Of a stretch of 64,000 nt of DNA, positions 2,525 through 58,322 are shown piece after piece. Position numbers and translations under genes: made by a program. The DNA is from an uncultured virus (IMG/VR IMGVR_UViG_2700989659_000001). Lineage: Duplodnaviria > Heunggongvirae > Uroviricota > Caudoviricetes. Position 1 is the stretch's first letter. Each line of letters opens with the position of its first letter. Below the pieces are notes generated by a model. That model did not search any database. It was not told where the DNA came from and worked only from the letters and a program-made list of their open reading frames with translations. The stretch is taken from the IMG/VR virus record IMGVR_UViG_2700989659_000001. The stretch is one strand, 5' to 3'.

Positions 2525-2929
2525 TTAAAATACTTTTTCTATTTGATCAAAGATCCATGTAATAATATATAAACTTGCATACAATAAAGAATATTTTATT
2601 ACTATCTGGCCTATTTCTGATGCACTTCCACCTTTTTTCATTCCACTTCTTATAATTTCTACACTTGCACAAATAATTGCTATCCATCTTCCTCCTTTTC
2701 TAATATAGCTTAAGAATGTAGCTCCTAGATCATCTATTCCATCGGAGTTGACAGCATGTACAATTGTAGGATGATTAGCTATAAAAAAAGCTACTGCTAT
2801 TCCTATTACAAATTGTCTTTCAAATTCCTTACTATTTCTAATCCCTAAGTTCTCTAATTTAATATCTAATGTAGTTTTACTTCCATATTTCCATTCTAAA
2901 TACTGGTCATGGTTCATTACTAATTTCAT
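2525..2929 (-). CDS. Membrane protein, VirB2/TrbC pilin-like layout
   Basis: AGGAG RBS; leader ending VHA followed by two hydrophobic helices. Confidence 0.45.
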   Translation of the reverse strand: MKLVMNHDQYLEWKYGSKTTLDIKLENLGIRNSKEFERQFVIGIAVAFFIANHPTIVHAVNSDGIDDLGATFLSYIRKGGRWIAIICASVEIIRSGMKKGGSASEIGQIVIKYSLLYASLYIITWIFDQIEKVF

Positions 2930-2948
2930 AAATTCTCCTTTCCAAAAT

Positions 2949-2977
2949 GTATAAAAGATAAAATTAAGGCCATACTA
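2949..2977 (+). promoter_or_regulatory. SigG-like promoter GTATA-N17-CATACTA
   Basis: Matches the forespore SigG consensus, upstream of the 3006 peptide. Confidence 0.55.
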
Positions 2978-3005
2978 AACAAATAAAATTTAACGAGGTG
3001 ATTAT

Positions 3006-3083
3006 ATGACAATACCATTTGCAATTGCAGCTGGATACGTTATTGCATACGGAGTTGCTTGTGTTGCAGTTTATTTCGGATAA
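3006..3083 (+). CDS. 25-aa hydrophobic peptide MTIPFAIAAGYVIAYGVACVAVYFG
   Basis: GAGGTG RBS, own promoter and terminator; absent from ORF track. Confidence 0.65.
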   Translation: MTIPFAIAAGYVIAYGVACVAVYFG

Positions 3084-3164
3084 TTCACTGAAATTAAGAA
3101 TATTTCCGACTTCTAATTGCATATACTTAGAGTGTAACTCGTTACGCTATAAGTAATTTAGCCT

Positions 3165-3195
3165 AAGTCTATCCTTTTACTGGATGGACTTTTTT
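3165..3195 (+). terminator. Intrinsic terminator
   Basis: AAGTCTATCC/GGATGGACTT stem + T-run. Confidence 0.7.
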
Positions 3196-3205
3196 CATGT
3201 TAAAA

Positions 3206-3370
3206 TTAACATTTATCTTTTCTTTTATATTTCTCAGGCAAATATATTTCTCCAAGTATTTGTTTTATTTCATTTCCTCTATCTTCTAACTCGTATAATT
3301 TCTTATATAATTCTATTTCCTTTGTAGATGTGGTTTTGAAACTTAATGGTATTACTAAAGGCTTATCCAT
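3206..3370 (-). CDS. 54-aa protein, possibly ribbon-helix-helix-like
   Basis: AAGGAG RBS; MDKPLVIPLSFKTTSTKEIELYKKL... Confidence 0.6.
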   Translation of the reverse strand: MDKPLVIPLSFKTTSTKEIELYKKLYELEDRGNEIKQILGEIYLPEKYKRKDKC

Positions 3371-3488
3371 CTCTTAGCTCCTTTTTAATTAATCTTTAGT
3401 TAATATATATTCAAGTTCCTTATAAAAATTACTAAATATTATATTTTATTAATTATTTTTATATAAAAATAAAGAGAATGGAAATTTA

Positions 3489-3722
3489 CTAAAATCCATT
3501 CTCTTTTTCTAAATAAACTATTTCATCAATTTTTAAATTTAATTTATTAGATATTTTCAATACCATTTCAAGACTTGGTTGATTACTGTTATTTTCCCAC
3601 TTATTATAACTAACTTGAGAAACTCCAATATAATCAGCAAAATCTTTTTGCTTTTTATATCCCAACTGAAGCCTTATTTCTAGTAATTTATTTTTTACCC
3701 CCACAATACCACCTCTATACAA
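3489..3722 (-). CDS. XRE/Cro-type HTH regulator (true start probably a GTG near 3703)
   Basis: QKDFADYIGVSQVSYNKWENN..QPSL. Confidence 0.85.
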   Translation of the reverse strand: MYRGGIVGVKNKLLEIRLQLGYKKQKDFADYIGVSQVSYNKWENNSNQPSLEMVLKISNKLNLKIDEIVYLEKENGF

Positions 3723-3909
3723 TTGTAAAATAATTACAAGTAATTATCAATAAATAAAATATAATAAAAGATTATATTTTTTGATGCATAATTTAAAGCA
3801 TTCTACAAATAATATAATTGCTCAAATATAGAAATTTAAATACTTAAACGGAGAAAAGAAATGGCACTTACTGAGTCTCCTGGTTATCTCTCTTCATATT
3901 TAACCGTAA

Positions 3910-4071
3910 TCAATTTTCTCTATTTCTATCTGCTCGCCTTCTCATTTCATTCACTATTAACTTGTCTAATTCTTGGCTTATTTTTAAAACCTCTTGTGAC
4001 TCCTTCCCATACTGTAAAATATGCACATGTAGTCTTTTCCTTAGTATTTCTATATTGTTTTTATCTTCCAT
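3910..4071 (-). CDS. Spo0E-family aspartyl-phosphate phosphatase-like protein, 53 aa
   Basis: AGGAG RBS; IEILRKRL...EVLKISQELDKLI contains the SQELD signature; absent from ORF track. Confidence 0.8.
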   Translation of the reverse strand: MEDKNNIEILRKRLHVHILQYGKESQEVLKISQELDKLIVNEMRRRADRNREN

Positions 4072-4407
4072 AAGTTGTCTCCTAAATATAATAAGAAATA
4101 ATTCATCACTCTTTGAATTTTAAAATTCATTTCTTTTCTATGATTATAACATGAAACACCTATATCTGCTGAACGCATTTCAGACAATTTCTCCCTATAT
4201 TCCCTATATTCATGCTGTTATTATCGTATTATTTATTGTAGAACAGCATATGAGATGAAGAAATAAAAAAGACAAGTTAAACATTAAATATTTCAGATAA
4301 ATCTTTGTCACATTAAATATAAAGATTATCTTTTAAATAAAAATTGAGAATTATATCGAAATTTGCTAGTATATATTTATATAAACTAACTAAGGAGGAA
4401 TTAACAT

Positions 4408-4620
4408 ATGAATAAGCCTAGTTCTTTGGGAAAGACTATTAAATTTATTAGAGTAGCTAACAATATCGATAGGAATAAATTAAGTAGATTAACTGGAATT
4501 GACAACCTGGCATTGTATGAGATTGAATGTGGTTATATACAGACTCTTAACGATAGTGATATAGAAAAGATAGCAAATGCCTTAGGTGTAAGTTCAGATA
4601 TATTAAAACGTAAAATGTAA
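4408..4620 (+). CDS. XRE-family HTH regulator
   Basis: AAGGAGG RBS; LSRLTGI...LYEIECG...IANALGVS. Confidence 0.85.
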   Translation: MNKPSSLGKTIKFIRVANNIDRNKLSRLTGIDNLALYEIECGYIQTLNDSDIEKIANALGVSSDILKRKM

Positions 4621-5334
4621 ATAAAATAACTCAATAAATACAAATAGCAACAAGCAAAAAACTCTTGCCTGCTGCCATTGACATATAGATATATTAAAAT
4701 ACTTACATTTATATTTTACCATTATACTACAATAAAGTAAATACCGACAAAAAAATGCAACCAAATTAATGATTGCACTTTTATTTATTATATGTTTTAA
4801 GGGTTTTATGGTATATAAGCATATAAATAGTTTATCATGAAACTAAATGCAAAAACAAGTAACTATTACTCTAAATAATATTATTCCCTTGATTTTTAGG
4901 AACTGCCTATGCTATACTAATTATGCAAAATGGACTGGCGGTGACTTAAGTTACTGCCTTTTTATTTTCTTAGTAATCAATGTATATAATTCTAATATTA
5001 TACTAATAATATAACTGCTCCATTCTATGGATTTAAACACAAAATAGGGATAGCTTTACTGTCATGCACCTGATTCTTTTGCTATCTCTATTTTTGTTAA
5101 AAAAATAAAAGGCAGACCAAGTATTTCTACCTAATCTGCCTTATGTAAAGGTACTGGTTTATGCTTCTAGCATTATTATAATATAATATTAATAGAAAAT
5201 ATTCCACTTCTATCAAATTTATCTCAAATAAAAAAATACAGCCAACTTAATGGCTGCATTTTGATTTGTATGTACTTTTGGCTTTTTCAATGGATCGCTA
5301 TCATTTTATCACATTTTTATAAAAAATCCAATTA

Positions 5335-5484
5335 TCATTTATCAATTAATTCATTCTTAACATATTCATTAATAGTATCTTCTTCACCTTTGAATATTTC
5401 TGCTAAGTATAATATTGTTTCCTGTTCTCCTTCCGGAAGGTCTCTTATTGTATCTTTGATTGTATCTATAGTTACATCTTTCAT
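5335..5484 (-). CDS. 49-aa acidic hypothetical protein
   Basis: GGTGGTG RBS; MKDVTIDTIKDTIRDLPEGEQE... Confidence 0.6.
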   Translation of the reverse strand: MKDVTIDTIKDTIRDLPEGEQETILYLAEIFKGEEDTINEYVKNELIDK

Positions 5485-5707
5485 AAAATAAAATCACCAC
5501 CTTGATGTTATTATGAGATATTATATTACATTAATCCAAAATAATCCATAGTATAAATAATGGAAATTTGCTAATGCTATAAATGCTAATCTTTTATAGC
5601 TTGGCAGGTTGCCATAAGACAGTAAATTAATTAATAGTTTGCTGTCTTTTGTTCCATATAATAAGTTGTTTATCATATATATTACACTTTTAATACTGAT
5701 AAAACTA

Positions 5708-5911
5708 TTATTCTATAATCAACATAGTTTCATCAGTATTAAAAATAATATCTTTCATAAATGCAAAAATAATTGTTTTTCTGTATTCACATGCAATTTC
5801 ATTTATTAAATTTATTTCTTCATCTGTTAATCTGCTCTTATAAACCATTATAGTTTTATAATCACTTTCTATAATAGCCGTAATTATTTTTCTTACATAT
5901 AAGTTATACAT
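5708..5911 (-). CDS. Hypothetical protein, 67 aa
   Basis: AAGGAG RBS. Confidence 0.65.
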   Translation of the reverse strand: MYNLYVRKIITAIIESDYKTIMVYKSRLTDEEINLINEIACEYRKTIIFAFMKDIIFNTDETMLIIE

Positions 5912-6650
5912 TTCTATATTTCTCCTTTTACTATCCTAATAGTTTATCAAATTTCATCCTATTTTATTACTAAAATTTGATTTGATATGAAAAATATTAA
6001 TTGTTAACTAAAATGTAAGATTTCCCTATATAAAATCAATATACTTTGTTCTTTTTCACTATAACTATTAATATAATAATAGTGGTTGGGTATTCTTGGT
6101 CCGTATATATGCATATATACTTAAAGGGATTGTATTTTTTGTATGATCCCTATCTCTATTGAAAATTATAGCCACTTACAAAACTATAAATTTTTATTTC
6201 TGTAACATTCCTTTTTCCTCTACAATATATTAATTAATATAACCGGCATTTTCTCCATGTCGTGTTAGTACTTTATGTGTATTAACAAAAAATATATCAC
6301 CTTTCGTTTTCATAAAAAAGCGGCAGTTAGAAACCTCTTTACTGCTGCCTTTTTATATAACTTAACATAAAGGGAACAAGGGGAATAAAGATTCCTCTCT
6401 ACTCCCCTTATACTAGAATTATTTAATGAGAACTCAACTTGCTTTTTTTATTAATTGCCTCAATTACATTATAACACCCATTAACAAAAAATGTAAAGTT
6501 TAATTTATACTTTATTTACATAATTTTTCTAATAATATATCCGATAATTATCGCCCTCATCTTATCATCTTCTCATTAGGTTCTAATATATTAGTTATAT
6601 AGATATATTTCTTTAATAGGCAATTAATATCTTGATAAGTGAATTGCGCA

Positions 6651-7742
6651 TTAATTTTTATCATTGTTAAATAGCACTACTTTATTCCTTCCAATGTTTT
6701 TTGCTTGATATAATGCAATATCAGCATTTTCAAGTAAATTATCAATTTGGCTTGTCAGTTTAGGGTATGATGATATTCCAATTGAAATTGTAATTTTGAT
6801 TGCTTCATTATCTGAAATATAAAAATTATTATTTTGGACAGTATTCCTTAATCTTTCTGCAATTTTAAAAGCTCTAGAATCTGAACAATCTAGTAATATT
6901 ATAGAAAACTCCTCTCCACCCATTCTCGATATCACATCATATGTTCTACATGTGTTAATAAGAATCTCAGCTAATCCTTTTAAAATAATATCACCTGAAT
7001 TATGACCATAATTATCATTTACTTTTTTAAAATAATCTATATCTATAAGTAACATAGATAGCTCTTCTTCTTTACGTATTGCCAACTGAGAAATATTATT
7101 AAAACTATCATCAAATTGCCTTACATTATTCAAACCGGTTAAATAATCTTTTGTTGCTTCATTTTTTAATCTTTGATAAATCTTGATTGTCTCAATTATG
7201 TAATCTAAGTACTTAATTGAAAAATAAGATATTATTAAATATCCAGAAATGAACATTGTCAATGTTTGAAATATTAATATTACATTTTTTAATGCTATGA
7301 ATGATGAAATAACTGATACTATAATAAGAAGAATCATAGAATAAATATACTTTCTTCTTTTTGATGATTTTAATAGAGAAATAATTCCAAATCCAACTCC
7401 TATAAATAATGAGCATATTAATCCAATTATTGACGAGTTAGAGACTCCTAAAAAGAAAAATCGAAAAGCGCCTATAATAATAGAAGCAATAACTGAAGGT
7501 ATTAAACCAACATAGAGAGCTGATAATAAAATTGGTATATATCGAAAATCAATGATTGTGTCATGTGTAATTTGCACACTATTCATCAACAATATTACTC
7601 CTAATATACCACTGAAAAATCCAAAAGCAACTTTATCATTTAATGATGAATTGCAAAAAATATTTTTTTCCTTAAAAAAATTCTGACCAATACTCATAAA
7701 CGCTATTAATATACATGCATTCTGAAAAAAACTCAACACCAT
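6651..7742 (-). CDS. Diguanylate cyclase with 5TM-LYT-type sensor
   Basis: N-terminal TMs with DFRYIP; DYLTGL, DID.FK, RxxD I-site, GGEEF. Confidence 0.92.
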   Translation of the reverse strand: MVLSFFQNACILIAFMSIGQNFFKEKNIFCNSSLNDKVAFGFFSGILGVILLMNSVQITHDTIIDFRYIPILLSALYVGLIPSVIASIIIGAFRFFFLGVSNSSIIGLICSLFIGVGFGIISLLKSSKRRKYIYSMILLIIVSVISSFIALKNVILIFQTLTMFISGYLIISYFSIKYLDYIIETIKIYQRLKNEATKDYLTGLNNVRQFDDSFNNISQLAIRKEEELSMLLIDIDYFKKVNDNYGHNSGDIILKGLAEILINTCRTYDVISRMGGEEFSIILLDCSDSRAFKIAERLRNTVQNNNFYISDNEAIKITISIGISSYPKLTSQIDNLLENADIALYQAKNIGRNKVVLFNNDKN

Positions 7743-7947: not shown

Positions 7948-9048
7948 ATGTTATTAAATTTTAATGCCATACTAAATATGAAAGGTGGCTTTGAAATGAA
8001 AATATTCAAAACTCTATTCTTATTTTTTATTGTAATTATAGTAACTATCATGTCAATATCTTATACTAAAATACATGCTAATTCACAAGTTGTTCCACAA
8101 AAACAAATTAAAACAGCTGTATTATTATTTAGTTTTGATGATCCTTATATTTCTTTAGTCCGTAAAGGACTAGAAGAAATTCAAAATAAAAATACCAGTA
8201 GTGTCGACTTTACATTTTATGATGGCAAAAGAAATCAGAACATACAAAATGCTCTTTTAGATTCGGTTCTTCAAAGTGATTATAATCTTTTGCTAATAAA
8301 CTTAGTCGATTTAGATCAAAGTACAGTCGAATCAGTTATCTACAAAGCAAAACAAAAAAACATTCCACTAATCTTATTTAATACAGTACCATTTGAAACA
8401 ATTCCTATTAAATCTTATAGTAAAGCCCTAGTTATATCTACCGATGCTATTCAATCAGGTGTTTTGCAAGGCGATCTCATTATAAATGAATGGAATTCAA
8501 ACAAAAATGATATTGATAGAAATGGCGATAATGCATTACAATATATTCTGCTAAAGGGTCCAAACAATATTACAGTAACAAATGCAAGAAGTTTATATTC
8601 TATTTCAACCATTAATAAATCTGGAATAAAAACTCAAGAAATTCTATCTAAAACTTGTAATTGGGATGAGAACTGTGCAGAAGATTCTATTAAACTACTA
8701 TTTTTAAGCTATGGAAAAAATATAGAAGCGATAATTTCAAATAATGATGCTATGGCCATAGGCGCTGTTAATTCATTACAATCATATGGTTATAATAAAG
8801 GAGATAAATCAAAATATATTCCAGTTTTCGGGATTGACGGAATACCAGAAGCTATAGATTTAATTGATAGAGGCATTATGTCTGGTACTGTATCACAAGA
8901 TCCAAATCAAACAGCTGAAGCCCTTTATGTTGTAGGAATGAATTTAGCTAATAATTTAAACCCGCTTCAAGGTACAAATTATAAATTTGATGAAACTGGA
9001 GTTACAATTAATATGCCTTATCATGAATATGAGCCACAGAAGCAGTAG
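7948..9048 (+). CDS. MglB-like sugar ABC substrate-binding protein (start probably 7996)
   Basis: IEAIISNNDAMAIGA, GIDG, GTVSQD. Confidence 0.85.
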   Translation: MLLNFNAILNMKGGFEMKIFKTLFLFFIVIIVTIMSISYTKIHANSQVVPQKQIKTAVLLFSFDDPYISLVRKGLEEIQNKNTSSVDFTFYDGKRNQNIQNALLDSVLQSDYNLLLINLVDLDQSTVESVIYKAKQKNIPLILFNTVPFETIPIKSYSKALVISTDAIQSGVLQGDLIINEWNSNKNDIDRNGDNALQYILLKGPNNITVTNARSLYSISTINKSGIKTQEILSKTCNWDENCAEDSIKLLFLSYGKNIEAIISNNDAMAIGAVNSLQSYGYNKGDKSKYIPVFGIDGIPEAIDLIDRGIMSGTVSQDPNQTAEALYVVGMNLANNLNPLQGTNYKFDETGVTINMPYHEYEPQKQ

Positions 9049-9168
9049 TTGGATTGCTCCTAGCCACTAATTTTTATTTACATCCTTTAATCTTAACTAT
9101 ACAAACTAAATTTAATCTTTAGAAGAAAATCATATTATTAAATAAAATACCCTACATGGAGGATTATA

Positions 9169-10212
9169 ATGTGGATATTGAAGAAAGTATTAATTATAGT
9201 ACTGTTAATGAATATTACAGTAAAACTCACTAAAATTAGCACGTTTTATAGTCTAAATTTAAATAATAAAAATATAACCAATATTGCTGTGTTATTATAT
9301 ACGTTTGATCCATTTATGTCATCACTTAAACAAAGCCTAGAAACTATCCAAAAGGATAATGATGATAAAATCAAAGTTACTTTTTTTGATGGAAAAAACA
9401 ATATAGCACTCCAAAATGAAACAATAGATTCTATTTCTAAAAATGATTTCGATTTAATTTTAGCAAACTTAGCTGATGTAAGTGAAAACTTTGTTGAAGA
9501 TATTATTTTTAAGGTTAAATCTAAGAATATTCCAATAGTTTTTTTGGATGTAGATCCGAAAGTAGTGTCCAAAGTTTCTAAATATTATGATAAAGCTGCT
9601 TTTATATTGGCAAATTCTGATTTAGCTGGCACTGTTCAAGGTAAAATTCTCGTTAATCTATGGAATACTAATAAAAGTGCACTAGATAAAAATAATGATA
9701 ATGTTCTACAATATATTCTATTACATGGTGAAGCTGATAATCCTGTCGCAATCGACAGAACAAAATATGCTATTTCAACAATTAATAACTCAGGGATAAA
9801 TACAGAACAACTAGCATTTGTAAATGCCAATTGGCTCAAGACTTTATCTAAAGATTCTATTGAATCATTATTCTTTAGATACGATGATAAAATTGAAGCA
9901 ATAATTTCAAACAATGATGATATGGCAATCGGGGCAGTTGAGGCACTTCAAAAATATGGCTATAATAAAGGTGAAAAATCAAAAAATATAGCTATTGTTG
10001 GAATCGATGGAATTCCCGAAGCAAAATCTCTAATTGATAAAGGATTTATGACTGGTACTGTTATTCAAGACCCGAAAATTTTAGCAGAAGTGTTCTATAA
10101 TGTTGGAATGAATTTAGTTAATAATTTAAGTCCTACAGAAAATACAAACTATAATGTTGTTGATGGAGAAATTATAGTTCCATTCCCTTACGAAGAATAT
10201 ATAAAAAAATGA
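9169..10212 (+). CDS. MglB-like sugar ABC substrate-binding protein (paralog)
   Basis: IEAIISNNDDMAIGA, GIDG, GTVIQD. Confidence 0.85.
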   Translation: MWILKKVLIIVLLMNITVKLTKISTFYSLNLNNKNITNIAVLLYTFDPFMSSLKQSLETIQKDNDDKIKVTFFDGKNNIALQNETIDSISKNDFDLILANLADVSENFVEDIIFKVKSKNIPIVFLDVDPKVVSKVSKYYDKAAFILANSDLAGTVQGKILVNLWNTNKSALDKNNDNVLQYILLHGEADNPVAIDRTKYAISTINNSGINTEQLAFVNANWLKTLSKDSIESLFFRYDDKIEAIISNNDDMAIGAVEALQKYGYNKGEKSKNIAIVGIDGIPEAKSLIDKGFMTGTVIQDPKILAEVFYNVGMNLVNNLSPTENTNYNVVDGEIIVPFPYEEYIKK

Positions 10213-10292
10213 ATCATTTTAATATAATTGTGATGGATTTCTTTGCTCATTCAAAAAGTACTTTGACGCAACAAGTTAATTGGAATATTCCA

Positions 10293-10437
10293 GTAACATT
10301 TTCCAAATTCCATAATATATTAAAGTGATATAAGCAATTATATTATCGTATATTTTTCTATTCCTCAAAAAGTTTTCATGATCTAACCTCATTAAATATT
10401 CTAAAAAGGCAGTAGTTGGATTGCTCCTAGCTACTGC
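10293..10437 (+). repeat. ~145-bp direct repeat, copy 1
   Basis: Near-identical to 11525-11667; ends in GCAGTAGTTGGATTGCTCCTAGCTACTGC hairpin. Confidence 0.9.
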
Positions 10438-10459
10438 TGACATATATTAGCGCTTTAAT

Positions 10460-11299
10460 TTACACAATATTATTCTTATCTAATCCATTTTCTTTAAGAA
10501 TTGCGTACATCGTTCCATCTGCTTTCATCTCATCAATCTTTTCATTTAGTACGTTTAGTAGCGTATTATCATTTTTTCTAATAGCTATTCCTATATTCCC
10601 TATTAGCTCCGGGCTATAATCATCTAGCGTCTTTAAAAAAAGATTCGTATGATCTTTTAAAGCTTTGTTTACAACAAGTGAATCTGCTATACCAGCATCT
10701 ATTTTCCCATTGTTTATTGAATTTAGCAATTCAGATATGCTTTGAAAAATTTCTATGTCTTTTATTAATCCAGCAGTCTTCCATTTTTGAGCTAATTCTA
10801 AGTATACAGTTCCTTTTTCTACTCCAACTACTGCATTTTTTAAATCATCTTTGAAATTAATTTTTGATGCCTTTGGAACTATAACTACCTCTGTTTCCGC
10901 ATATAATGGGTGAGTAAATGATACTTCTTTCTCCCTCTCTGGAATTATATACATTCCACCAGATGCTATATCTATATTTTCGTCAGTTTTTAATCCTTGT
11001 AATAATTCTGAAAACACTGTGCTTTTAAAATCAACTTTATTAATTTTAAGCCTATTTGAAATTTCATTTATTATATCTGCGTCAATGCCTCTTACCTTTT
11101 GAGTGTTAATATCCAAAAAATAGAATGGTGGATCACTTGAAGCAGCTGCAACAGTAAGAGTTCCTTTTTCTTTTATAGTTTGCAATCTATCTTTTTCAAT
11201 TAAATTATCAACTCTTACAACTTCATTAATGTTTACAGTAAACCCAATTATCCTGCAAATGAAATTTACTATAACAATCAAAGCAACTATTTTCTTCAT
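10460..11299 (-). CDS. Polar amino-acid ABC substrate-binding protein (family 3)
   Basis: GTLTVA...PPF...GIDADI...VSFTHP...KADGT. Confidence 0.88.
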   Translation of the reverse strand: MKKIVALIVIVNFICRIIGFTVNINEVVRVDNLIEKDRLQTIKEKGTLTVAAASSDPPFYFLDINTQKVRGIDADIINEISNRLKINKVDFKSTVFSELLQGLKTDENIDIASGGMYIIPEREKEVSFTHPLYAETEVVIVPKASKINFKDDLKNAVVGVEKGTVYLELAQKWKTAGLIKDIEIFQSISELLNSINNGKIDAGIADSLVVNKALKDHTNLFLKTLDDYSPELIGNIGIAIRKNDNTLLNVLNEKIDEMKADGTMYAILKENGLDKNNIV

Positions 11300-11524
11300 A
11301 ACTAAAATTTTCCTCCTGAATAGGCTATTTTAATGTTAGTTTCTCTAGCAAACTTTAGATTATTCATATTTTTTAAATACTTTTTTTGCTTGTTTATATT
11401 ATAGAATTTTAAATACTCATATAAGTATACATTAATAATTTTTAAACATTTCTATATTGATAGTAAAAATTTTTCTAGAAATACCTTTTATTATTACTTA
11501 ATTCTATAAGATCATTTCTTTGAA

Positions 11525-11667
11525 GTAACATTTTTCAAAACGCCATAATATATTAAAGTGATATAAGCAATTATATTATCGATTTCTCCATCACTCAAAA
11601 AGTTTTCATGATCTAACCTCATTAAATATTCTAAAAAAGCAGTAGTTGGATTATTCCTAGCTACTGC
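11525..11667 (+). repeat. ~145-bp direct repeat, copy 2
   Basis: Near-identical to 10293-10437. Confidence 0.9.
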
Positions 11668-11719
11668 CACTACTTGAATATTATATTAATTATGATAGTA
11701 TATGTAAGGAGGTGCTTTT

Positions 11720-12262
11720 ATGGGACAAGAAATTAAAATTCCAGCTAAATTAAGTATAAAAAACATATATTCTTTATTTATTTACTATTTCATACTATTA
11801 ATCTTAACTGTGTTAAATACAATATATATATTGTATATCCATTATTTAAATTTATCAAATGATACGAATTTTACAGAAAATTTCAACAATATTTTATCGG
11901 GGTGTATTTCTTTTTCTATTTGTGCAAGTTGTATATATTATATTCGTAAATTATACAAGCTTTCTCTAGCAAATAGGATTGAAATTTTTTCTACTAATAA
12001 TGCAGATTTGATACATATAGGAACACTTTGCTATTTTATTATAAGACCATGGTTTGCAGGAGTGTTTAGTATTATATTATTTTTAGGGTTAAATAGTGGT
12101 ATTCTTATTGTAAGTGGTAATAATAATTCAACAAATAAATTAATGGATTTATACATATTCCTGAGTTTCTTTGTGGGATTTTCTAGTGGAAAGTTTCTAC
12201 ATTACATAGAAAATAAATCTGGAGATATTATTGACTCATTTTCAAATTCCAAATCTGAATAA
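11720..12262 (+). CDS. Four-TM membrane protein of unknown function
   Basis: AAGGAGG RBS; four hydrophobic segments. Confidence 0.75.
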   Translation: MGQEIKIPAKLSIKNIYSLFIYYFILLILTVLNTIYILYIHYLNLSNDTNFTENFNNILSGCISFSICASCIYYIRKLYKLSLANRIEIFSTNNADLIHIGTLCYFIIRPWFAGVFSIILFLGLNSGILIVSGNNNSTNKLMDLYIFLSFFVGFSSGKFLHYIENKSGDIIDSFSNSKSE

Positions 12263-12264
12263 GC

Positions 12265-12300
12265 AAAAAACTCAGATTAAAAAATGAATCTGAGTTTTTT
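12265..12300. terminator. Bidirectional terminator
   Basis: AAAAAACTCAGATT/AATCTGAGTTTTTT between convergent genes. Confidence 0.85.
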
Positions 12301-12306
12301 GTTCTC

Positions 12307-13293
12307 TTAAGTCTCAAACCTTATGCCTAAGTCTGTATATATAGGCCTTAATAAATCATCAGTTAATGGCCAATCCATTTGAACTTGAACGGGATATTTT
12401 TTAACTAGATAATATAGCAATATAACAATTGATTGCCGAAATAATAGCTTGTTAGTATATTTTGCATTAATTTGTTCTTTCATAAATTGAAAATATTCAT
12501 CAACAAACTTTTTAAATTCATCATGTTCAATTTCTTGGATTAAGGTATGATAAGAATTTATTATCAAATCCTGAATTCTACTATTATCCTCCGGATTCTT
12601 TATCTCTAAGTATTTCTGTTTTATTATCGGAAGTAAATTATTTGATTTTAAATTATTTAAATTAATCATGGCATCACTTACCTCCTTAAAAATTCCATCT
12701 GTGGTTTCAATCATTGCCATACTTCTTGCAACTAACCTTTGAACATTAGCTTCAACTTGCTGCTTTGGCTTATACACAGTATCATGAGTTAATTCGCTAT
12801 ATGCATGTTGCAACAAAGTTCTGATTTGTATCTCACATGTTACATCCTTTTCAATAGTAATATTATTTACAGTTCTTATTTTATTATTCGTAACTACATA
12901 ATGAACTGATTGATAATCGAAAAAAGTAGGTTTTTCCTCTCTCTCTTTTTCAAAATCCCTATCTTTAGATGATATCCATTCATCAGATTTTTCAACAATA
13001 TCCTTTATTATATTTATATCTTCTAATAATAATACTACAAACCTTATACCAACTTTATCAGTAATATCATGTAATGGATTTGAATAATTTTTTCCCCTAT
13101 AAAAAGCTTTTTCTAAGATTGAAGCATTACCTTTTAATCTTACTTGTGGCTTTATTTTTAAAAAAAGCTCTACATCAAATCCTTTTTCATTAATTTTTTT
13201 AACTATATAATTATTAACATAATTCCCCCATTCGTTTATCATTGGTTTAATTTTCTCATATTCTTCTAAAAAATTTTCCTCTTTATTAATCAT
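12307..13293 (-). CDS. RelA/SpoT-family small alarmone synthetase with C-terminal helical extension, no hydrolase domain
   Basis: RLK..S..EK, DKVGIR, YQSVH, EIQIRT..QH...ELTHD..YK. Confidence 0.9.
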   Translation of the reverse strand: MINKEENFLEEYEKIKPMINEWGNYVNNYIVKKINEKGFDVELFLKIKPQVRLKGNASILEKAFYRGKNYSNPLHDITDKVGIRFVVLLLEDINIIKDIVEKSDEWISSKDRDFEKEREEKPTFFDYQSVHYVVTNNKIRTVNNITIEKDVTCEIQIRTLLQHAYSELTHDTVYKPKQQVEANVQRLVARSMAMIETTDGIFKEVSDAMINLNNLKSNNLLPIIKQKYLEIKNPEDNSRIQDLIINSYHTLIQEIEHDEFKKFVDEYFQFMKEQINAKYTNKLLFRQSIVILLYYLVKKYPVQVQMDWPLTDDLLRPIYTDLGIRFET

Positions 13294-14348
13294 TGTTGAT
13301 ATTTAATCTTTCCATTAATTTCAATTTTAGTTATATCATTATTATCTGATGGAAGTATTTTTATTAATTTACTAAACTCTTCTGATGGACCTATAATACT
13401 AATTTCATTAGAAAATTTTATTTTCCGTTGTTTTAGTCTAGTTTCTAAATATTGCGTATCTTTATTTATAGATGTCGCTGGTATTTTTTTATCAATCATG
13501 AAAGTGCTATATGAATCTCTAAATTCCCTTTTCAATGAATTGTTACTAAAATCATCTATGCTTATAGTCGCATTAACATTTGATTTTATATATGAATACA
13601 ATTCTAAATTTAAATCTAGTTTTTCTTCATCTGGAAGCTCTAATGAATTTATGAATTCTTTTGATCCTTCATAAAAATGCTGAGTTAGTAATTTACTGTT
13701 ATTCTTAAAATCACAACCTAGGAATAAGTCGTAAAAATAAGTTGCAGCATCTTTCGTTTCTGTCTTCTTCATATTATGATCATATACAAAAATTGTATAC
13801 TTATCTGCTAAATTATTTGAGTTTTGATTGTCCTCTATGAAAACTGCAATTTTATAAAGTTTTTGCTCTGGTGTAAGTAAAAGATCCGATAAATATTTTA
13901 AAACTTCATTTTGCCCATCTATTTTAGTAGTTGTAAAACCACTGTGCAAATCTGCCTTAATTATACCGCATATACGTTTATTATTTAATCCTATCGTACC
14001 TTCAAAAATTAATACAATTCCACCTGGTATACGCCTAGATGATTGGGCTTTTGCTAATTTGTATGTAATCTTTTTTGAATTTTCGATGAATGTATTTTCA
14101 TCACTTCTTATTGATTCATCCACACATTTTACACAGCTTCCTTCTGAAATATCAATTATCCCCATTTCTAAACTGTTTGACTTATTACCGATAGCATTTA
14201 TTACCCTTTCCTTAAGAACTTCAATACCATCAGTATCTAATACAGACAACGATTTACTATATAATGGCTCTACTAATTCTTTATCAATATTTCTTTTGAA
14301 TATTTTATGAATAATAACTCTTTCTATTTTTAAATTTATGAATTCCAT
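13290..14348 (-). CDS. NA37/YejK(NdpA)-family nucleoid-associated protein
   Basis: IERVIIHKI N-terminus, GG..L, IIK, LYKIA, YF..FLG motifs; 352 aa. Confidence 0.75.
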   Translation of the reverse strand: MEFINLKIERVIIHKIFKRNIDKELVEPLYSKSLSVLDTDGIEVLKERVINAIGNKSNSLEMGIIDISEGSCVKCVDESIRSDENTFIENSKKITYKLAKAQSSRRIPGGIVLIFEGTIGLNNKRICGIIKADLHSGFTTTKIDGQNEVLKYLSDLLLTPEQKLYKIAVFIEDNQNSNNLADKYTIFVYDHNMKKTETKDAATYFYDLFLGCDFKNNSKLLTQHFYEGSKEFINSLELPDEEKLDLNLELYSYIKSNVNATISIDDFSNNSLKREFRDSYSTFMIDKKIPATSINKDTQYLETRLKQRKIKFSNEISIIGPSEEFSKLIKILPSDNNDITKIEINGKIKYQQ

Positions 14349-14585
14349 TTTAACCCTCCATCAATTTTATTTATATAATATAAAAATTATGCTATAATAG
14401 AGGTATCTTAATAGAACTCTATTATAGCTAAGAACTCACGAGATTACCGTCTCATATGTGAGTTCTTTTTATTGGTTGTATTTACATAATACTACAGTTT
14501 GTACAAGTTTTCCACAAAATAAAAATAAAGGGTAACAAACAATATTTCTACTGCCTACCACCCTAAAATTTATATCTCTTAGCTA

Positions 14586-14744
14586 TTATATTTTCCCCAA
14601 ATTTTTAATCAAATTTTGTAATACATCAGTCAATCCATACTTAACTATTAAATATGATCCATACCCTACAATGACTGCTCCTATAATTACAACTATATAA
14701 AAAAGTATTCTGTTAATTATGTACTTAACCATTCTTATAATCAT
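14586..14744 (-). CDS. 52-aa single-TM protein
   Basis: GGAGAGG RBS, hydrophobic core, own terminator at 14529-14564. Confidence 0.6.
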   Translation of the reverse strand: MIIRMVKYIINRILFYIVVIIGAVIVGYGSYLIVKYGLTDVLQNLIKNLGKI

Positions 14745-14870
14745 AAAATCCTCTCCCTCTAAGATTTTGCTTTATGGTTATATTACTATATTATGTAATT
14801 TAAGTCAAAAAAATAAAGGCACAGGATTACTCCCATACCCTAAGAACTCTAATTTAACCTTTAATCTTTT

Positions 14871-15131
14871 CTATGATATTTCTTCTATAGCTAATAATCT
14901 TGGAGAATTCCCTTGCTGAATTTTAATATATACCTTAGCCATCTTCATTTGTAAATCCTCTATAATTGTTTTTACTTTACATATAAAATAATAATCTTCT
15001 ATACCATTTGTAACTAAAGCTATAGGTTTAAAATTCCATCCTTTAATCCCATTTAATGCTTTATGTAATATTTTTTTATCTTCTTTAGTAATTTTATTTC
15101 TGATTTCCAATTCGTCATTTTCCTTTTTCAT
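14871..15131 (-). CDS. Hypothetical protein, 86 aa
   Basis: GGGAG RBS; flanked by a 26-bp direct repeat. Confidence 0.7.
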   Translation of the reverse strand: MKKENDELEIRNKITKEDKKILHKALNGIKGWNFKPIALVTNGIEDYYFICKVKTIIEDLQMKMAKVYIKIQQGNSPRLLAIEEIS

Positions 15132-15272
15132 AATACCAACTCCCTTTATACTAATTATATTACAATTAGTTTTTGTCAGCTGTTTGTCAAATATGTTAAC
15201 CTTTTCTTAAAAATTTCTTAATAAAAAATTAAGGGCACAGAATTACTCCCATACCCTAAAACTATTTTTACC

Positions 15273-16880
15273 TTATGCATTTTTTATTTTATCAAGTGGA
15301 AAATACTTTCCTGGACACTCTGAACTTCCTTTTTCTCTATGCCCATATACTGGCATATTGCCATACTTATTCCATAGATAAGCCTTCAATTGGCACCACG
15401 AATTATATTGAGCTTCTGGCATTTGCGTCCTTGTATCATAATTACCTTCAAAGGCTATACCAAGTGAATTAGTGTTAGCTCCCTGACAATGAGCACCAAT
15501 TGCATTATCTGGTCTGCCTTTATAGACACTACCGTCTAATCTAATATAATAATGATATCCAATACCTGCCCATCCATTTTCATTTTTATGCATATTGTGA
15601 ATCATTTCAACAGTCCAGTTAGATCCTTCTGCTTCTATATGATGAACAATTGATATAGAAGGATTGTTTGTCATGTTCATACTTCCAAAATCAAGGCCTA
15701 CATCTATACAATTGAATGTTGTATTTTTTATCCATGCTCCATTAGAATCAAAGCTATAATTTTTACCATCTATAAGTATTGTGCAATTTACATAGCAATA
15801 CCCCTTATCTATGTCTAGATAGTACCAATTAGTATCTGTGTCCTGATACCATCCCGTCAGCATAATTCCATCATTGCCTACTCTATACCATTTACCTTTC
15901 CAAGATATCCATTTATCTACTACCATTGCACAAGTTTCAGATTCTAAATAGTACCATTTGTTTTTATACTGTATCCAATCTCCATCTATTGCATATCCTT
16001 CATTATTAAAGTAATACCAGGATTCCTTAATTTGTTTCCAGCATTCTTCATAATAGGTATTACCATCTTCTGAATACCACCATCCTTTATCATTTTTATT
16101 CCATCCAACCTTATAAATCTCAACTTCTGGAACCTTAACATTTTTTATATCTTCCAATACCCATAGCTCTTTAATAATATTAGAATCTATATCTAGATAA
16201 TATTTCCCTTTGTCACCATTCCAATCTCCCCAGCTATTAATTAAAATTAGTGAACCTTCTTTATATCCAATACAAAGCATAGCATGAGAACCTTGTTTAC
16301 TACCATTAGGAATATTGGGTATAATCCCTTTATTAGTATTGGCCTCGTAGAAATTATCGTAAACGTAGCAAGTTAGCAGTATTGGTTTTTGATATTTAAC
16401 CAGGTATTCTTTTATGTCTTCTGTAGATAAATATATGTAAGCTAAGGATTTATGATCGTCAGCCTCATCTAACAATTTTTTTTTATTGTATTTATCTAAT
16501 GTTGTAACTATGGATGGATATTCTTCATTTACTGGAAAAGATGTTTTTTTGCAATCTCCAAATTTAACAAGATTCCTCAAAGCTTCTCTAGTAACCATCC
16601 CAGTTCCTTTATAGTCATTTTCTTGTCTATTAGCATAGATAAACCCAACTGAATACATATCATTACTACTTACTGCATCTATATATGATTTCATTTCACT
16701 TAATGCATGTGCAACACAGCTTCCCACTTGACCTTGACACAATATTGGATAATCATAGTCCAATATAAATTCCTCCAGAATATCTATTTTTTCACTTGAA
16801 CTTGAAATCATTGAGTAATCATAATCTCTTAAATCTACAGGCGAATCTATTACGCCTAATATATAATTTTTATCATCCAT
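15273..16880 (-). CDS. Endolysin: papain-like C1 peptidase + choline-binding-type repeats + Amidase_2/PGRP domain
   Basis: QGQVGSC, GSHAM, LINSWG; WYY repeats; HH..GWAGIGYHY..GAHC..GHRE..CPG. Confidence 0.85.
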   Translation of the reverse strand: MDDKNYILGVIDSPVDLRDYDYSMISSSSEKIDILEEFILDYDYPILCQGQVGSCVAHALSEMKSYIDAVSSNDMYSVGFIYANRQENDYKGTGMVTREALRNLVKFGDCKKTSFPVNEEYPSIVTTLDKYNKKKLLDEADDHKSLAYIYLSTEDIKEYLVKYQKPILLTCYVYDNFYEANTNKGIIPNIPNGSKQGSHAMLCIGYKEGSLILINSWGDWNGDKGKYYLDIDSNIIKELWVLEDIKNVKVPEVEIYKVGWNKNDKGWWYSEDGNTYYEECWKQIKESWYYFNNEGYAIDGDWIQYKNKWYYLESETCAMVVDKWISWKGKWYRVGNDGIMLTGWYQDTDTNWYYLDIDKGYCYVNCTILIDGKNYSFDSNGAWIKNTTFNCIDVGLDFGSMNMTNNPSISIVHHIEAEGSNWTVEMIHNMHKNENGWAGIGYHYYIRLDGSVYKGRPDNAIGAHCQGANTNSLGIAFEGNYDTRTQMPEAQYNSWCQLKAYLWNKYGNMPVYGHREKGSSECPGKYFPLDKIKNA

Positions 16881-17391: not shown

Positions 17392-17628
17392 TTATTTATT
17401 AAATATTCCTGTTTGAACTGCATAAAAAAAGAAGCTAACTAAAGCTCCTCCAATTGCAGTTATAAACCACTTCATCATACTGGTTAAGTTTTTAAGATTT
17501 TCACATAGGTTCTTAAGCTCTGTCTTTAGTTCTCTTCCATCTTGTTCAAGCTTATCTAATCTATCTCCATGATTATTAAGCCTTTTGTCATGAGTTTCTA
17601 TTTCATGTCTAATTAATTCTTCATTCAT
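17392..17628 (-). CDS. xhlA: XhlA-family holin/hemolysin
   Basis: Coiled coil + C-terminal TM (KWFITAIGGALVSFFF). Confidence 0.8.
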   Translation of the reverse strand: MNEELIRHEIETHDKRLNNHGDRLDKLEQDGRELKTELKNLCENLKNLTSMMKWFITAIGGALVSFFFYAVQTGIFNK

Positions 17629-18874: not shown

Positions 18875-19159
18875 CTAAGCATTAGTAGTTTCCATAGTTG
18901 CTACTATGCTTGTTAATTCTGCATTTGCTTGCGTTAAACTCGCTACCTGCTCTTGTAATTTCTCTATATCTGTTTTAGGTATATCTTCAAAATTTGGAAC
19001 ATTTGGAGCTTTAGTTGTATCTATACTAGTCACTCTTTGTCCAACTGGAATTTCCACTTCTAAATAATTAATACCACCTTCTGGTACTCTATATGGAGCA
19101 TTAAATGTTAAAATTATATATCCTGTATTATCATAAATTACTAGTGTTTTCAATTTCAT
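18875..19159 (-). CDS. Tail fibre assembly/XkdW-like protein
   Basis: LVIYDNTG start, C-terminal coiled coil, follows fibre gene. Confidence 0.6.
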   Translation of the reverse strand: MKLKTLVIYDNTGYIILTFNAPYRVPEGGINYLEVEIPVGQRVTSIDTTKAPNVPNFEDIPKTDIEKLQEQVASLTQANAELTSIVATMETTNA

Positions 19160-50502: not shown

Positions 50503-51539
50503 TTACTTTTCTATATAGTTAATAACATTCTTAATTACCATGTTTATAGTTCCATCACCATTTGGCACTATTTCAAATTTACTAGAATCATGATAAACAT
50601 CTTCGTTGATGTACAAGTCTATCTGCTTATCTATATTAAGCCTTGTCCTCTTTAGTTTCTTTTCTACCCAAGTCTTGTCCACTAACACCTCATCGTTTAA
50701 TCCTTGTTGTTTTATATAGCTTGTAAAGTCTTCTCGCATTTGTGGATCTTCTACAAACAATATCTCTGAAAATTCATCTATATTTATTGTATCTTCTTCT
50801 TTTAACTTAGTTTTATAGTGCTTCTAATCTCTTCGGCTTTTACTGCATCATCCGTAATATTTTTTCTGGTCCAGTTCTCAGCTGCCTTTACAAAAGTTTT
50901 AGTCATATCTCTTTCATTAGTTACTATGCTTGCACCTAAAAATGTATTTATAAAGTAATTGGCTCCATATTCATCCTCTTTACTGATTTTTTGCTTATCT
51001 AGAACCATTAAATTGTATCTTTCATCTTCTTTAATTGGTTTAATGAACGCAGCCTTTTGTATTTTTTGACCTCTACCTGGAAGCCCTGCTGCTTGTGGTA
51101 CAATTCCAACTCCTACTTTTTTATCTATGAATTGGACTTCATGAGTAAAGTTTTTAACATAATCTAATTTAAGTATCGCAATCATAGGGCCTTGATCTGT
51201 AGTTATTGATGCGACTATTAAATCCGCACTTGGAATATTAACATTGCCTAACATTATCATGAATAATTGCTTAGCTAACTCTTTAGATGCATTTATTAAA
51301 TTACCATCTATTCCTTTTAGGTAATCTTGAGTTAATTCTTTAACTATACTTCTTTCTTGATTGAACTTTGCATATCTAAGCTCTTCGTCTTTTAAACATT
51401 TTTCAATATGCTTGTATAAAAACATATACGTATCTTCATCTAATTCCAAACTATATTCATTTAATATTGCTTCCCCTCCATTGCTATCTAGTACATGGAT
51501 TACAGCTTCATTAATATTAATTTCATTAACATATTCCAT
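50503..51539 (-). pseudogene. NA37/YejK-family protein split by a 1-nt frameshift
   Basis: Adding one A to the A4 run at 50811-50814 joins the 245-aa and 85-aa ORFs. Confidence 0.75.
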
Positions 51540-55331: not shown

Positions 55332-56306
55332 TTAGACTATAAGCTTATTAAGTTCCTTAAGCTCTGCTACTAAATTATTTATATTTTCTTTTTCTATGGT
55401 TATAGTTCCGGTTTTAAGCTTTAAATCTATATGGTTTTCTTTTATTTCATATTCCCCTATGGATCCTTTATAAAGTTTCACCAATTGTAATATTGGCTTT
55501 TCTTCTATTACGCTGCTTTCTTCAATGCTTTCCTTAATTTGTTTATGCCCTTGATAATTCTTCGCATACTTTCTTATATCCCATACATCTAGATAACTTT
55601 TTATGGTACTTAAGTTTATTCCGTATTTTTGTGCTATTTCATTTAGGGCCACCTTATTAGTGCCATATCTTTTTATGTGCGCAAGTAGCTCTTCCTTACT
55701 TAGTTTCTGAACTGGCATACTATCATCACCTTCCATTATATTTTTAATTTTATTCAGAGAATCTTTATATTTTCTTGATACACTTGTAGAACTTATATTT
55801 AGAGTTTTTGAAACTTCGACTTGAGTTTTGTTCTGAAATGCTACTAACTCCACTATTGTTTTATTTATCGGTTCTAATTTGTCTATTGCTGCTTTAAGAT
55901 TTTCGCATTCAATGTTTGTAAGAGCTATATCCTCATAATCATTATCATCATGTATTCCTTCAATAAATTCCGTTTCATTATCTTGATTATTATTTATAAC
56001 TTTATTTAGACTGGTAATTACAATGTGCTGGCTTTTATCAGATTTATAATTTCTATTTAATTCATTATTTATAATCATGGTGGCAAATGTTGTAAATAAC
56101 ACTTTCTTATTTATGTCATAGGCGTTGTAGGCTTTTATAAGTCCAATAAAACCTATCTGTTTTAAATCCTCAATCTCATATCTTATTGTCCATCTTTTGC
56201 ATAAGTTATAAACTAATCCCGAGAATTTCTCGCATACTTCTTTTGATGTTAAATTTTCAGTCCTATTTTTAAACTTTATAAGTCTCTTTACAACATTAGA
56301 TCCCAC
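55332..56306 (-). CDS. Sigma-70 family factor (SigF/G-like regions 2 and 4) with extra C-terminal domain
   Basis: EDLKQIGFIGLIKAY..YD....F.TFA; KTQ.EV...L.IS...VSR. Confidence 0.8.
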   Translation of the reverse strand: MGSNVVKRLIKFKNRTENLTSKEVCEKFSGLVYNLCKRWTIRYEIEDLKQIGFIGLIKAYNAYDINKKVLFTTFATMIINNELNRNYKSDKSQHIVITSLNKVINNNQDNETEFIEGIHDDNDYEDIALTNIECENLKAAIDKLEPINKTIVELVAFQNKTQVEVSKTLNISSTSVSRKYKDSLNKIKNIMEGDDSMPVQKLSKEELLAHIKRYGTNKVALNEIAQKYGINLSTIKSYLDVWDIRKYAKNYQGHKQIKESIEESSVIEEKPILQLVKLYKGSIGEYEIKENHIDLKLKTGTITIEKENINNLVAELKELNKLIV

Positions 56307-57369: not shown

Positions 57370-57771
57370 TTATATATCTAGCTCTAAAATTTCATCCTCT
57401 GTGACCTTCTTATCCGCCATACATTTGATAATCACATCTTCTCTAGCATATTTACCGTTATGCATTATCAAACTGCTCAATAGCCTATCTAGTGGCTTGT
57501 TCTTAATCTCTAGAATCTCTTTTATTTCTTCTCTTGTTAGATATTCTTTTAAAAAATGTGTTTCTAAGTAGTTCTGGAATTGAAGTTTGTACTTAAGATA
57601 CAATCTCCTGTTAAAATGAACTCCTGTTTTATGATCTCTATGGTGTGCATAACAAAGATATACAAAGTTATGCTTACAATCCTCTAAAGGTTTAAGCTGC
57701 TTTCGTGAAATTATATGGTGTAATTCTACTCCATAGCTTGTACCACATTCATTACAATACTTTTCACTCAT
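57370..57771 (-). CDS. HNH-like zinc-binding nuclease
   Basis: CNEC...HHI...N...LC..HH....GVH. Confidence 0.65.
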   Translation of the reverse strand: MSEKYCNECGTSYGVELHHIISRKQLKPLEDCKHNFVYLCYAHHRDHKTGVHFNRRLYLKYKLQFQNYLETHFLKEYLTREEIKEILEIKNKPLDRLLSSLIMHNGKYAREDVIIKCMADKKVTEDEILELDI

Positions 57772-58322
57772 ACTCTCACCTTCTCACAGTCCATAAAGAC
57801 TAATCGTATCTTTTTAGAGATTTCTCTTTTTATTCTTGATACTTGATTTTGAGATGTATTTATCATTTTAGCTATCTCTTTTTGAGTACAATCATTTACG
57901 AAATACAAATTAAATACTTGTTTTTCTCTTGTATTAAGTTTTTCTATAGCTTCCCTTAGATTTGCCCCTGTAATGAAATCATCCTCAAAGCTGTTTATTC
58001 CAATCCGGCCCTCTAAATTTCCACAATCATATTCAGCTTCATAGGATAAGAACTTATATTTATGAGGAACACCTCTATTTTCATTAAACTGTTTATCACG
58101 AGATATAAAATTCAGTAATGCACCTCTTACTGATGGAATAGCATACGAAGAAAATTTAATGTCCTTAGTTTCATCAAAGCTCTTTCCTGCTTTTACTAAT
58201 GCTAAATATGCAACTTGAACTACGTCTTGAAATTCATATTTCCAATTTATTTTAGGATATATTCTCTTAGCTTCTGTGTAAGCTAACCCCATGTGCTCTG
58301 TTATATCAATCATCTTCATCAC
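57768..58322 (-). CDS. Sigma-70 family factor (SigF/G-like)
   Basis: D..Q.....LVKA...FD.....FSSYA; TQKEIA....SQ.QVSR. Confidence 0.85.
   Translation of the reverse strand: MMKMIDITEHMGLAYTEAKRIYPKINWKYEFQDVVQVAYLALVKAGKSFDETKDIKFSSYAIPSVRGALLNFISRDKQFNENRGVPHKYKFLSYEAEYDCGNLEGRIGINSFEDDFITGANLREAIEKLNTREKQVFNLYFVNDCTQKEIAKMINTSQNQVSRIKREISKKIRLVFMDCEKVRV

Follow-up and report, generated by a model that had tools for sequence, protein, structure and literature searches.

A prophage-associated operon of a YejK-like nucleoid-associated protein and a small alarmone synthetase resembles type I PANGU anti-phage systems

The closest described relatives of the locus studied here are the bicistronic anti-phage operons named PANGU, which are built around a YejK-like nucleoid-associated protein (NAP) (Li et al., bioRxiv 10.64898/2026.04.06.716658, 6 April 2026). 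In type I PANGU, the NAP Pag1A is encoded together with Pag1B, a small alarmone synthetase (SAS) of the previously unexplored GRel subfamily. The Methods of the preprint call these two genes 'NA37 and gRel', and a PANGU operon is defined there by NAP and effector genes less than 40 bp apart. Here, we analyzed a pair of this kind in a 64,000-nucleotide stretch of DNA from an uncultured tailed virus (IMG/VR record IMGVR_UViG_2700989659_000001), the whole of which is called the window in the following. We report its gene structure, the families, folds and domain layout of its two products, their catalytic residues, the conservation and co-inheritance of the pair, and its recurrent carriage by prophages. 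In our view, the pair is likely an abortive-infection module similar to type I PANGU: a moron that is transcribed independently and is located, in a tailed prophage of about 50 kb of a Clostridium-like host, at the end distal to the lysin.

According to the text of the preprint, defence by type I PANGU against T4 or Bas34 requires both genes, and no construct was toxic (Li et al., 2026). In Pag1B, a SYNTH domain at the N-terminus is joined by a helical linker to an acidic, DNA-mimicking C-terminal domain ('DMK'), and Y129 of the F. futtsuensis protein is essential. By itself Pag1B is an inactive tetramer, and Pag1A is its required activator in vitro: a Pag1A dimer binds to the C-terminal domain of Pag1B with a KD of 9.4 nM, and a 2:1 complex was seen by cryo-EM. 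The activated enzyme converts ATP and GTP, GDP or GMP into AMP and pppGpp, ppGpp or pGpp, and no labelling of tRNA was reported. Pag1A resides on long DNA and leaves the nucleoid once EndoII of T4 begins to degrade the genome. Type I operons ('Cluster 1') occur in more than 5 phyla, and most PANGU operons belong to Bacillota and Pseudomonadota. The word 'prophage' is absent from the main text of the preprint. Our text search of the literature found no other paper on such a pair of NAP and GRel synthetase, and the main text of the 2020 paper on toxic SAS enzymes (toxSAS; PMC7229694) mentions neither GRel nor NA37/YejK.

The original prediction for this DNA, made from its letters only, had presented the pair as an undescribed system, a claim that by its own terms was to be given up upon a match to a system already named. 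The pairing is the one named type I PANGU in the preprint (10.64898/2026.04.06.716658), and the claim of novelty is therefore abandoned. Since this class already has a name and a described mechanism, the locus opens no new class, and the window pair is probably a further, prophage-borne example of it. The defence by NA37 and synthetase was described in 2026 in Proteobacteria. Its full-length relatives in Clostridium-type prophages, in which the two genes are strictly paired and often occupy the moron slot behind the lysin, bring Gram-positive anaerobes, and competition between phages, within the reach of the system. Also, the locus constitutes a compact and insulated module with which genome-integrity sensing by a displaced nucleoid protein can be tested outside E. 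coli.

Gene structure of the operon and comparison with described systems

Both genes lie on the - strand: the pag1A-like gene at 13290..14348 encodes a YejK/NA37-type NAP of 352 aa (40.4 kDa), and the pag1B-like gene at 12307..13293 an SAS of 328 aa (39.1 kDa). They share the sequence ATGA at 13290..13293 (TCAT on the + strand), where the stop codon of the NAP gene lies over the start codon of the SAS gene, which suggests that translation of the two genes is coupled. Overlaps of -4 or -1 were also seen in most related loci. As in type I PANGU, the NA37 gene comes first on the same strand, and the 4-nt overlap falls within the definition of less than 40 bp given in the preprint. The masses of the two proteins likewise resemble those of the P. 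aeruginosa PANGU pair (40.6 and 37.5 kDa) (Li et al., 2026).

The NAP matched the Pfam family NA37 (PF04245, E 4.8e-18, residues 12-321) and, over its full length, phrog_1974 (E 6.7e-52). Its AlphaFold2 (AF2) model, with a predicted local distance difference test score (pLDDT) of 85, had a sole significant fold match in the PDB, E. coli YejK (9be2, E 8.6e-10). The window NAP shares its Pfam family and predicted fold with chromosomal YejK, and it is YejK-like as are the NAPs of type I PANGU. It differs from chromosomal YejK in that the two are only 15% identical in the structural alignment and that the window gene is operon-linked to an effector on mobile DNA. With the protein sequence, a profile search of the PDB retrieved YejK only at E 0.08, and a single-sequence search gave no match; the NAP also scored well below the YejK equivalog (NCBIfam PRK00378, NF001557: 29.4 bits for a cut-off of 341). 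Compared with the NAP of a Pseudomonas sp. pair, identity was 37% from end to end (E 2e-81). Among 50,697 GenBank phage records, the NAP had no match.

The synthetase matched Pfam RelA_SpoT (PF04607, E 1e-15, residues 52-178), no hydrolase domain was found in it by the Pfam scan, and it aligned over its full length with phrog_32462 (E 3.1e-65). In its model (mean pLDDT 89), the synthetase domain (residues 1 to ~175) is followed by a long helix of 35 residues (182-216) and by an all-helical domain (221-321). This predicted arrangement corresponds to the SYNTH domain, helical linker and C-terminal domain reported for Pag1B, in a synthetase-only protein of ~330 aa. It also bears out the earlier description of an enzyme lacking a hydrolase and ending in a helical tail of about 130 aa. 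Y127, H131, E154, Q156, H163 and D171 were invariant in 25 of 25 aligned relatives, and in the same alignment the C-terminal positions Q287, W308, P309 and G323 were invariant or nearly so. Y127 aligns with the tyrosine of the RelQ G-loop GYRSYH, and its likeness to the essential Y129 of Pag1B is one of position and motif rather than of a direct alignment. The SAS was 41% identical from end to end to its Pseudomonas sp. homologue (E 2e-77). Thus, both window proteins, at ~37-41% identity, stand apart from the proteobacterial pairs. Three partial matches to the SAS were found in the GenBank phage records, none covering 80%.

Among enzymes of solved structure, RelQ/SAS1 and RelP/SAS2 (PDB 5DEC, 5DED, 5F2V, 2BE3, 6EWZ), which make (p)ppGpp, gave the best matches to the catalytic domain. 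RelQ/SAS1 was the best fold (E 2e-9, template modelling score by target 0.75-0.79), with RelP also found, and both headed the PDB sequence search (E 1.5e-10 to 4e-4), in which no toxSAS chain appeared at E up to 1. Fold matches to toxSAS were weaker, with E 7.8e-5 for CapRel and E 6e-3 for FaRel2. This closeness of sequence and modelled fold to RelQ/RelP would fit a (p)ppGpp-making rather than a tRNA-modifying enzyme. RelQ and RelP differ from the window SAS by their length (~210-230 aa for 328 aa) and by the lack of a C-terminal domain and of a NAP partner, and the SAS lies below the RelQ equivalog (NCBIfam YjbM, NF053588: 47.2 bits for a cut-off of 320). RelQ is a homotetramer. This assembly can be likened to the inactive tetramer reported for Pag1B (Li et al., 2026).

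CapRel(SJ46) (PDB 7ZTB), from a Salmonella prophage, is likewise a prophage-encoded effector of RelA/SpoT type with a C-terminal regulatory domain which acts by abortive infection. However, CapRel is a fused single polypeptide, auto-inhibited in cis, whose trigger is a capsid protein of the phage and whose target for pyrophosphorylation is tRNA, whereas the window SAS has a separate putative DNA-binding activator encoded upstream; their fold match is weak, with a root-mean-square deviation of 21 Å over the whole chain. FaRel, FaRel2 and PhRel also employ a RelA/SpoT synthetase domain as growth-arresting effector beside a small partner gene. They differ in being toxic alone and neutralised by an antitoxin, and in making (pp)pApp or modifying tRNA; the fold match of FaRel2 to the window SAS is poor. 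The idea of (pp)pApp synthesis or tRNA pyrophosphorylation, which the original prediction cited for toxSAS enzymes, is thus probably wrong for the window SAS, both by analogy with the relatives, which according to the preprint make (pp)pGpp and do not label tRNA, and in view of the predicted proximity to RelQ/RelP.

The operon is framed by signals of its own. In the leader/promoter region (14349..14480, - strand), the 132 nt located 5' of the NAP start codon form two neighbouring hairpins in the predicted fold (-35.4 kcal/mol, z -5.76; none of 200 shuffled sequences reached this stability), the first at about 14430-14467 and the second formed by the palindrome 14391-14428 (inverted repeat I23), inside which TATAAT-like hexamers are found. 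A putative ribosome-binding site GGAGGG is present at about 14355-14360 (- strand), and a promoter-like site at 14514-14486 (- strand) fits at 9 of 12 positions, as a consensus match only. The palindrome and hairpins may serve as an operator or attenuator. Directly 3' of the SAS stop codon, a hairpin between an A-run and a T-run (12265..12300; z -5.58, 0 of 200 shuffles) has the features of a bidirectional intrinsic terminator, common to the operon and to a convergent gene at 11720..12262. On the other side, a terminator-like hairpin at 14529..14564 (- strand), whose stem of 16 pairs precedes a T-run, marks the end of the small-ORF unit (ORF, open reading frame) before the operon and is a putative insulator of the operon from late phage transcription.

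Upstream of the pair, at the end of the late operon, lies the endolysin gene (15273..16880, - strand; Pfam Amidase_2, E 3e-20, with choline-binding repeats), and beyond it a holin-like gene (17392..17628, phrog_1193). From the operon toward the lysin, we found in succession the hairpin 14564-14529, a 52-aa ORF, a terminator, an 86-aa ORF, a second terminator and the endolysin gene. Five terminator-like sites were detected for 0.5 expected, and three of them part the lysin, the two small ORFs and the operon. An own leader and bracketing terminators are what a moron expressed in the lysogen would show. The operon is real and well delimited, and very probably functional. The ATGA overlap, the structured leader, the terminator and the position behind the lysin, all remarked in the original prediction, were thus recovered. 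No Rfam family was found in 9000-15500 (E up to 0.1). As a side observation, the hairpins 14807-14843 and 15223-15259, located 3' of the 86-aa ORF and of the lysin gene, are near-identical 37-nt terminators (repeat D3); it looks as if small terminator-bounded cassettes were stacked behind the lysis genes.

Conservation of the pair and its carriage by phages

Relatives of the SAS numbered 1346 at E ≤ 0.001 among 2804 candidates. Nearly all were 320-335 aa long, and their sources included Clostridium, Mesorhizobium, Leptospira, Chloroflexota and Thermodesulfobacteriota. The neighbourhood survey covered 160 loci: of 594 confirmed genome stretches and 109 confirmed IMG/VR stretches encoding SAS relatives, the best 80 each were taken, and NA37 genes were sought by jackhmmer in their ORFs, with the window NAP as seed. 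An NA37 gene was located directly upstream of the SAS gene, on the same strand, in 151 of the 160 loci (gap -50 to +19, values of -46 arising from greedy start-codon choice). The pairing thus recurs beyond chance, and the conservation that the original prediction had expected of a genuine system was observed. In two other loci the upstream NA37 gene lay beyond the adjacency threshold, through an artefact of start choice (L001) or with both genes looking broken (L154), and in three less than 450 bp of DNA was available upstream of the SAS gene. Four loci had room and no NAP (L156, L157, L159, L160); all four are among the five weakest SAS matches, the fifth of which, L158, has an adjacent NAP.

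The two proteins have also been inherited together. For 138 complete pairs, the pairwise distances of NAP and SAS were correlated with r = 0.93, a value reached in 0 of 500 Mantel permutations, which indicates co-inheritance as a unit and is by itself no proof of physical co-evolution. This co-inheritance and the wide spread across phyla, Bacillota included, are further points of likeness to type I PANGU as the preprint describes it. In E. coli, a pair homologous over its full length to that of the window and annotated 'nucleoid-associated protein | GTP pyrophosphokinase' was found in 4 of 5426 complete genomes, with a Klebsiella copy of the operon as query. There was no universal third gene: at the 117 loci with downstream neighbours, these fell into many small clusters; the largest, of 23 members, stemmed from a single group of related viral contigs, and 72 were singletons. 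Among the GenBank phages, the operon DNA had no match, and no isolated phage of that set (50,697 records) carries the NAP-SAS pair.

Carriage by prophages recurs among the relatives. We examined 15 near relatives, for which 79 of 105 neighbouring ORFs were scanned. The pair follows an endolysin gene in five of them (L081, L082, L083, L084, L103), and in six it stands beside repressor, Sie-like or integrase genes (L086, L090, L093, L037, L105, L001); L037 has the same sequence as L093 and was not scanned separately, so that this group holds five independent loci. One pair is located before the small terminase gene (L100), and three lie beside transposase-like genes or genes without clear family (L087, L019, L035). 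In the related provirus L083, a gene for a 774-aa methyltransferase-like protein (4474-6795; phrog_2713 / phrog_13671) was observed between the endolysin gene and the pair, which suggests a second defence-type cargo in the same slot.

In the window itself, the genes from ~17 to ~63 kb encode a holin, tail fibre, baseplate, tape measure, sheath, portal and terminases. The full set of genes for tail, head and packaging ends at about 46.5 kb, and the early genes reach to about 63 kb. Sigma-like regulators, a DnaD-like loader, Erf and an anti-repressor are encoded as well. By its gene content, the ~17-63 kb region is a complete tailed prophage. A provirus record (G001) is identical to window positions 18887-64000 and extends 4.6 kb past the window end. 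At this far end, a gene for a 558-aa large serine recombinase abuts a 5'-truncated Mn-catalase gene, which is without the first ~66 profile positions and is likely the integration target; an IrrE-like/HTH (helix-turn-helix) pair is also present there.

Proposed mode of action and rival explanations

For this locus, we infer binding, activation, product, trigger and phenotype by analogy, and all steps of the mechanism are taken over from the text of the preprint (Li et al., 2026). We propose that the SAS is the effector of the pair and the NAP its DNA-bound sensor and activator. In the lysogen, the YejK-like NAP would be made together with the synthetase and kept on chromosomal DNA as a dimer, and the synthetase would rest in the cytoplasm as an inactive oligomer. 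A superinfecting lytic phage that degrades the host chromosome would free the NAP, which would then bind the helical C-terminal domain of the synthetase (2 NAP:1 synthetase), whereupon the inactive oligomer would fall apart. The synthetase domain would move pyrophosphate from ATP onto GTP, GDP or GMP. Nucleotide depletion and (pp)pGpp would halt transcription and translation, the incoming phage could not multiply, and the lysogen population would be protected. The original prediction had left open whether the NA37 protein is a sensor or an antitoxin. By analogy, the infection sensor is retained and an anti-phage role is very probable, and the antitoxin is given up, as Pag1A activates Pag1B in the system described in the preprint.

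A classical type II toxin-antitoxin pair, in which a toxic SAS would be released from a labile NA37 antitoxin by phage-induced shut-off, appears to us very unlikely. The gene order, partner then enzyme with a 4-nt overlap, does resemble that of many toxin-antitoxin operons, the strict co-inheritance of NAP and SAS would also fit such a pair, and both toxSAS toxin-antitoxin systems and the prophage-borne CapRel are established in the published accounts. Nevertheless, RelQ/RelP are closer to the synthetase domain of the window than is any toxSAS of solved structure and, to our knowledge, NA37 is not a known antitoxin domain. Moreover, in the NA37+GRel systems of the preprint no construct was toxic and Pag1B was inactive without Pag1A; since neither gene is toxic alone in these described relatives, the toxin-antitoxin part of the original prediction is, by analogy, not upheld.

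The kinship with housekeeping RelQ/RelP could instead point to a physiological role, in which the prophage, by means of the DNA-bound NAP as regulator and of the (p)ppGpp synthetase, would tune the stringent response, growth or sporulation of its host, or would sense DNA damage for its induction. Regulation is suggested by the palindrome that spans the putative promoter, and five of the near relatives (L086, L090, L093, L105, L001) are situated in lysogeny modules beside repressors or integrases. However, the SAS is no RelQ equivalog (47 bits against the cut-off of 320) and bears an extra conserved C-terminal domain, the pair is scattered over many phyla and mobile contexts in the manner of defence genes, and relatives were demonstrated to block phages in the experiments of the preprint, so that we hold such a role to be hardly probable. 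An offensive function seems to us most improbable. Here the pair would be expressed in the lytic cycle of the prophage, where it would shut down host macromolecular synthesis or compete with other phages late in infection, as its orientation with the late operon, directly behind the lysis cassette, might suggest. Yet the pair has a leader of its own and is set apart from the lysin by three terminator-like hairpins, a late arrest of transcription and translation would hurt the phage itself, and relatives are also found away from late genes.

Several points weigh against a prophage-borne type I PANGU-like module at this locus. PANGU is known from a single preprint without peer review, and of the roughly one dozen NAP operons described in its text, only 4 were protective in E. 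coli (Li et al., 2026). We base membership of the window pair on its architecture and on its homologues in Pseudomonas and E. coli, not on the tested Pag1A and Pag1B sequences, and our sequence and fold searches of the PDB with NAP and SAS found no PANGU chain. The acidic, DNA-mimicking trait of the C-terminal domain is only weakly visible, a possible difference from Pag1B: by sequence charge, residues 201-328 of the SAS have a net charge of -2 and an isoelectric point of 5.7, whereas the median charge in the family is -4 and a neutral or basic domain is seen in 4 of 25 relatives. PADLOC 2023 gave the SAS a weak partial match to another candidate, the single-gene PDC-S33 (E 5.8e-9), and no known defence gene was found among the 4 neighbours scanned with it. 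Also, the trigger in a Gram-positive anaerobe is assumed by analogy.

The position of the operon raises further doubts of the same kind. The operon (11.7-14.3 kb) may lie within the Clostridium-type prophage or only at its margin, in either case behind the lysin, and this placement is a further difference from the PANGU operons of the preprint. The provirus record starts at window position 18887 and leaves the holin, the lysin and the NAP-SAS pair outside; this boundary is uninformative on the operon, because the lysis genes too fall outside the record. No direct repeat above chance was detected between the far end and 9-19 kb, and neither an att repeat nor a split target gene was seen at the left end. 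On the + strand, the N-terminal fragment of the catalase was not found at 11.3-19 kb, where the scan covered 41 of 68 small ORFs (all but the 27 within the lysin-holin coding stretch), or at 1-11.3 kb, where it covered 54 of 56 ORFs. An unreliable scan with catalase motifs gave no match either.

A broader reading, which we regard as doubtful, would join these elements. Temperate phages, in addition to chromosomal defence islands, would be a main vehicle of type I PANGU, a superinfection-exclusion moron fired when a rival phage shreds the chromosome of the lysogen, and phage-borne NAPs would be either the evolutionary source of the PANGU sensor or its modulators or decoys. A canonical NA37 gene of the early region of the prophage (50503-51539, - strand) could then silence the effector at the prophage's own induction or counter PANGU in a new host, and the convergent membrane protein encoded at 11720..12262 could be a lineage-specific third component.

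Neighbouring genes and other observations in the window

The convergent gene 11720..12262 (+ strand), which shares the terminator of the operon, encodes a membrane protein of 180 aa with about four hydrophobic helices. Homologues lie convergent to the SAS gene, 1-36 bp past it, in 3 of the 160 loci (L082:8979-9536, L084:8965-9576, L103:5912-6517); the SAS proteins of these loci are only 40-45% identical, yet the layout is the same. No Pfam family was found for the membrane protein at E up to 5 bar noise, nor any SLATT or PADLOC family, and in the protein atlas it belongs to unnamed clusters only. From the recurrence of this layout, still weak evidence, an accessory or cassette partner of the pair is possible.

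The NA37 gene of the early region matches the canonical family much more strongly than does the NAP gene of the operon (Pfam E 1e-53; phrog_1974 E 2e-99). A frameshift near 50.80-50.82 kb divides it into parts of 245 aa (profile 1-231, E 1e-53) and 106 aa (229-324, E 1e-16). Its product is similar to the 'nucleoid-associated protein' found in phages of C. difficile, for example phiMMP02 and CDKM15 (23 GenBank records), and its similarity to the PANGU-type NAP of 13290-14348 is marginal (25% over 51 residues). Two sigma-factor-like proteins (phrog_351) are encoded at 55332-56306 and 57768-58322 (- strand), in the early or middle region of the prophage.

On the other side of the operon, the 3.7 kb of 2930-6650 hold no ORF of at least 90 aa and, as the only ORF, one of 71 aa with an HTH motif (4405-4617, + strand); no Rfam family was found in 2800-6800 at the gathering threshold. 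Finally, a non-coding element of ~140 nt is present twice, at 10299-10437 and 11532-11667. The copies are 92-94% identical, match no Rfam family and flank a gene for a substrate-binding protein (10460..11299), and the small ORFs called over them are probably spurious.

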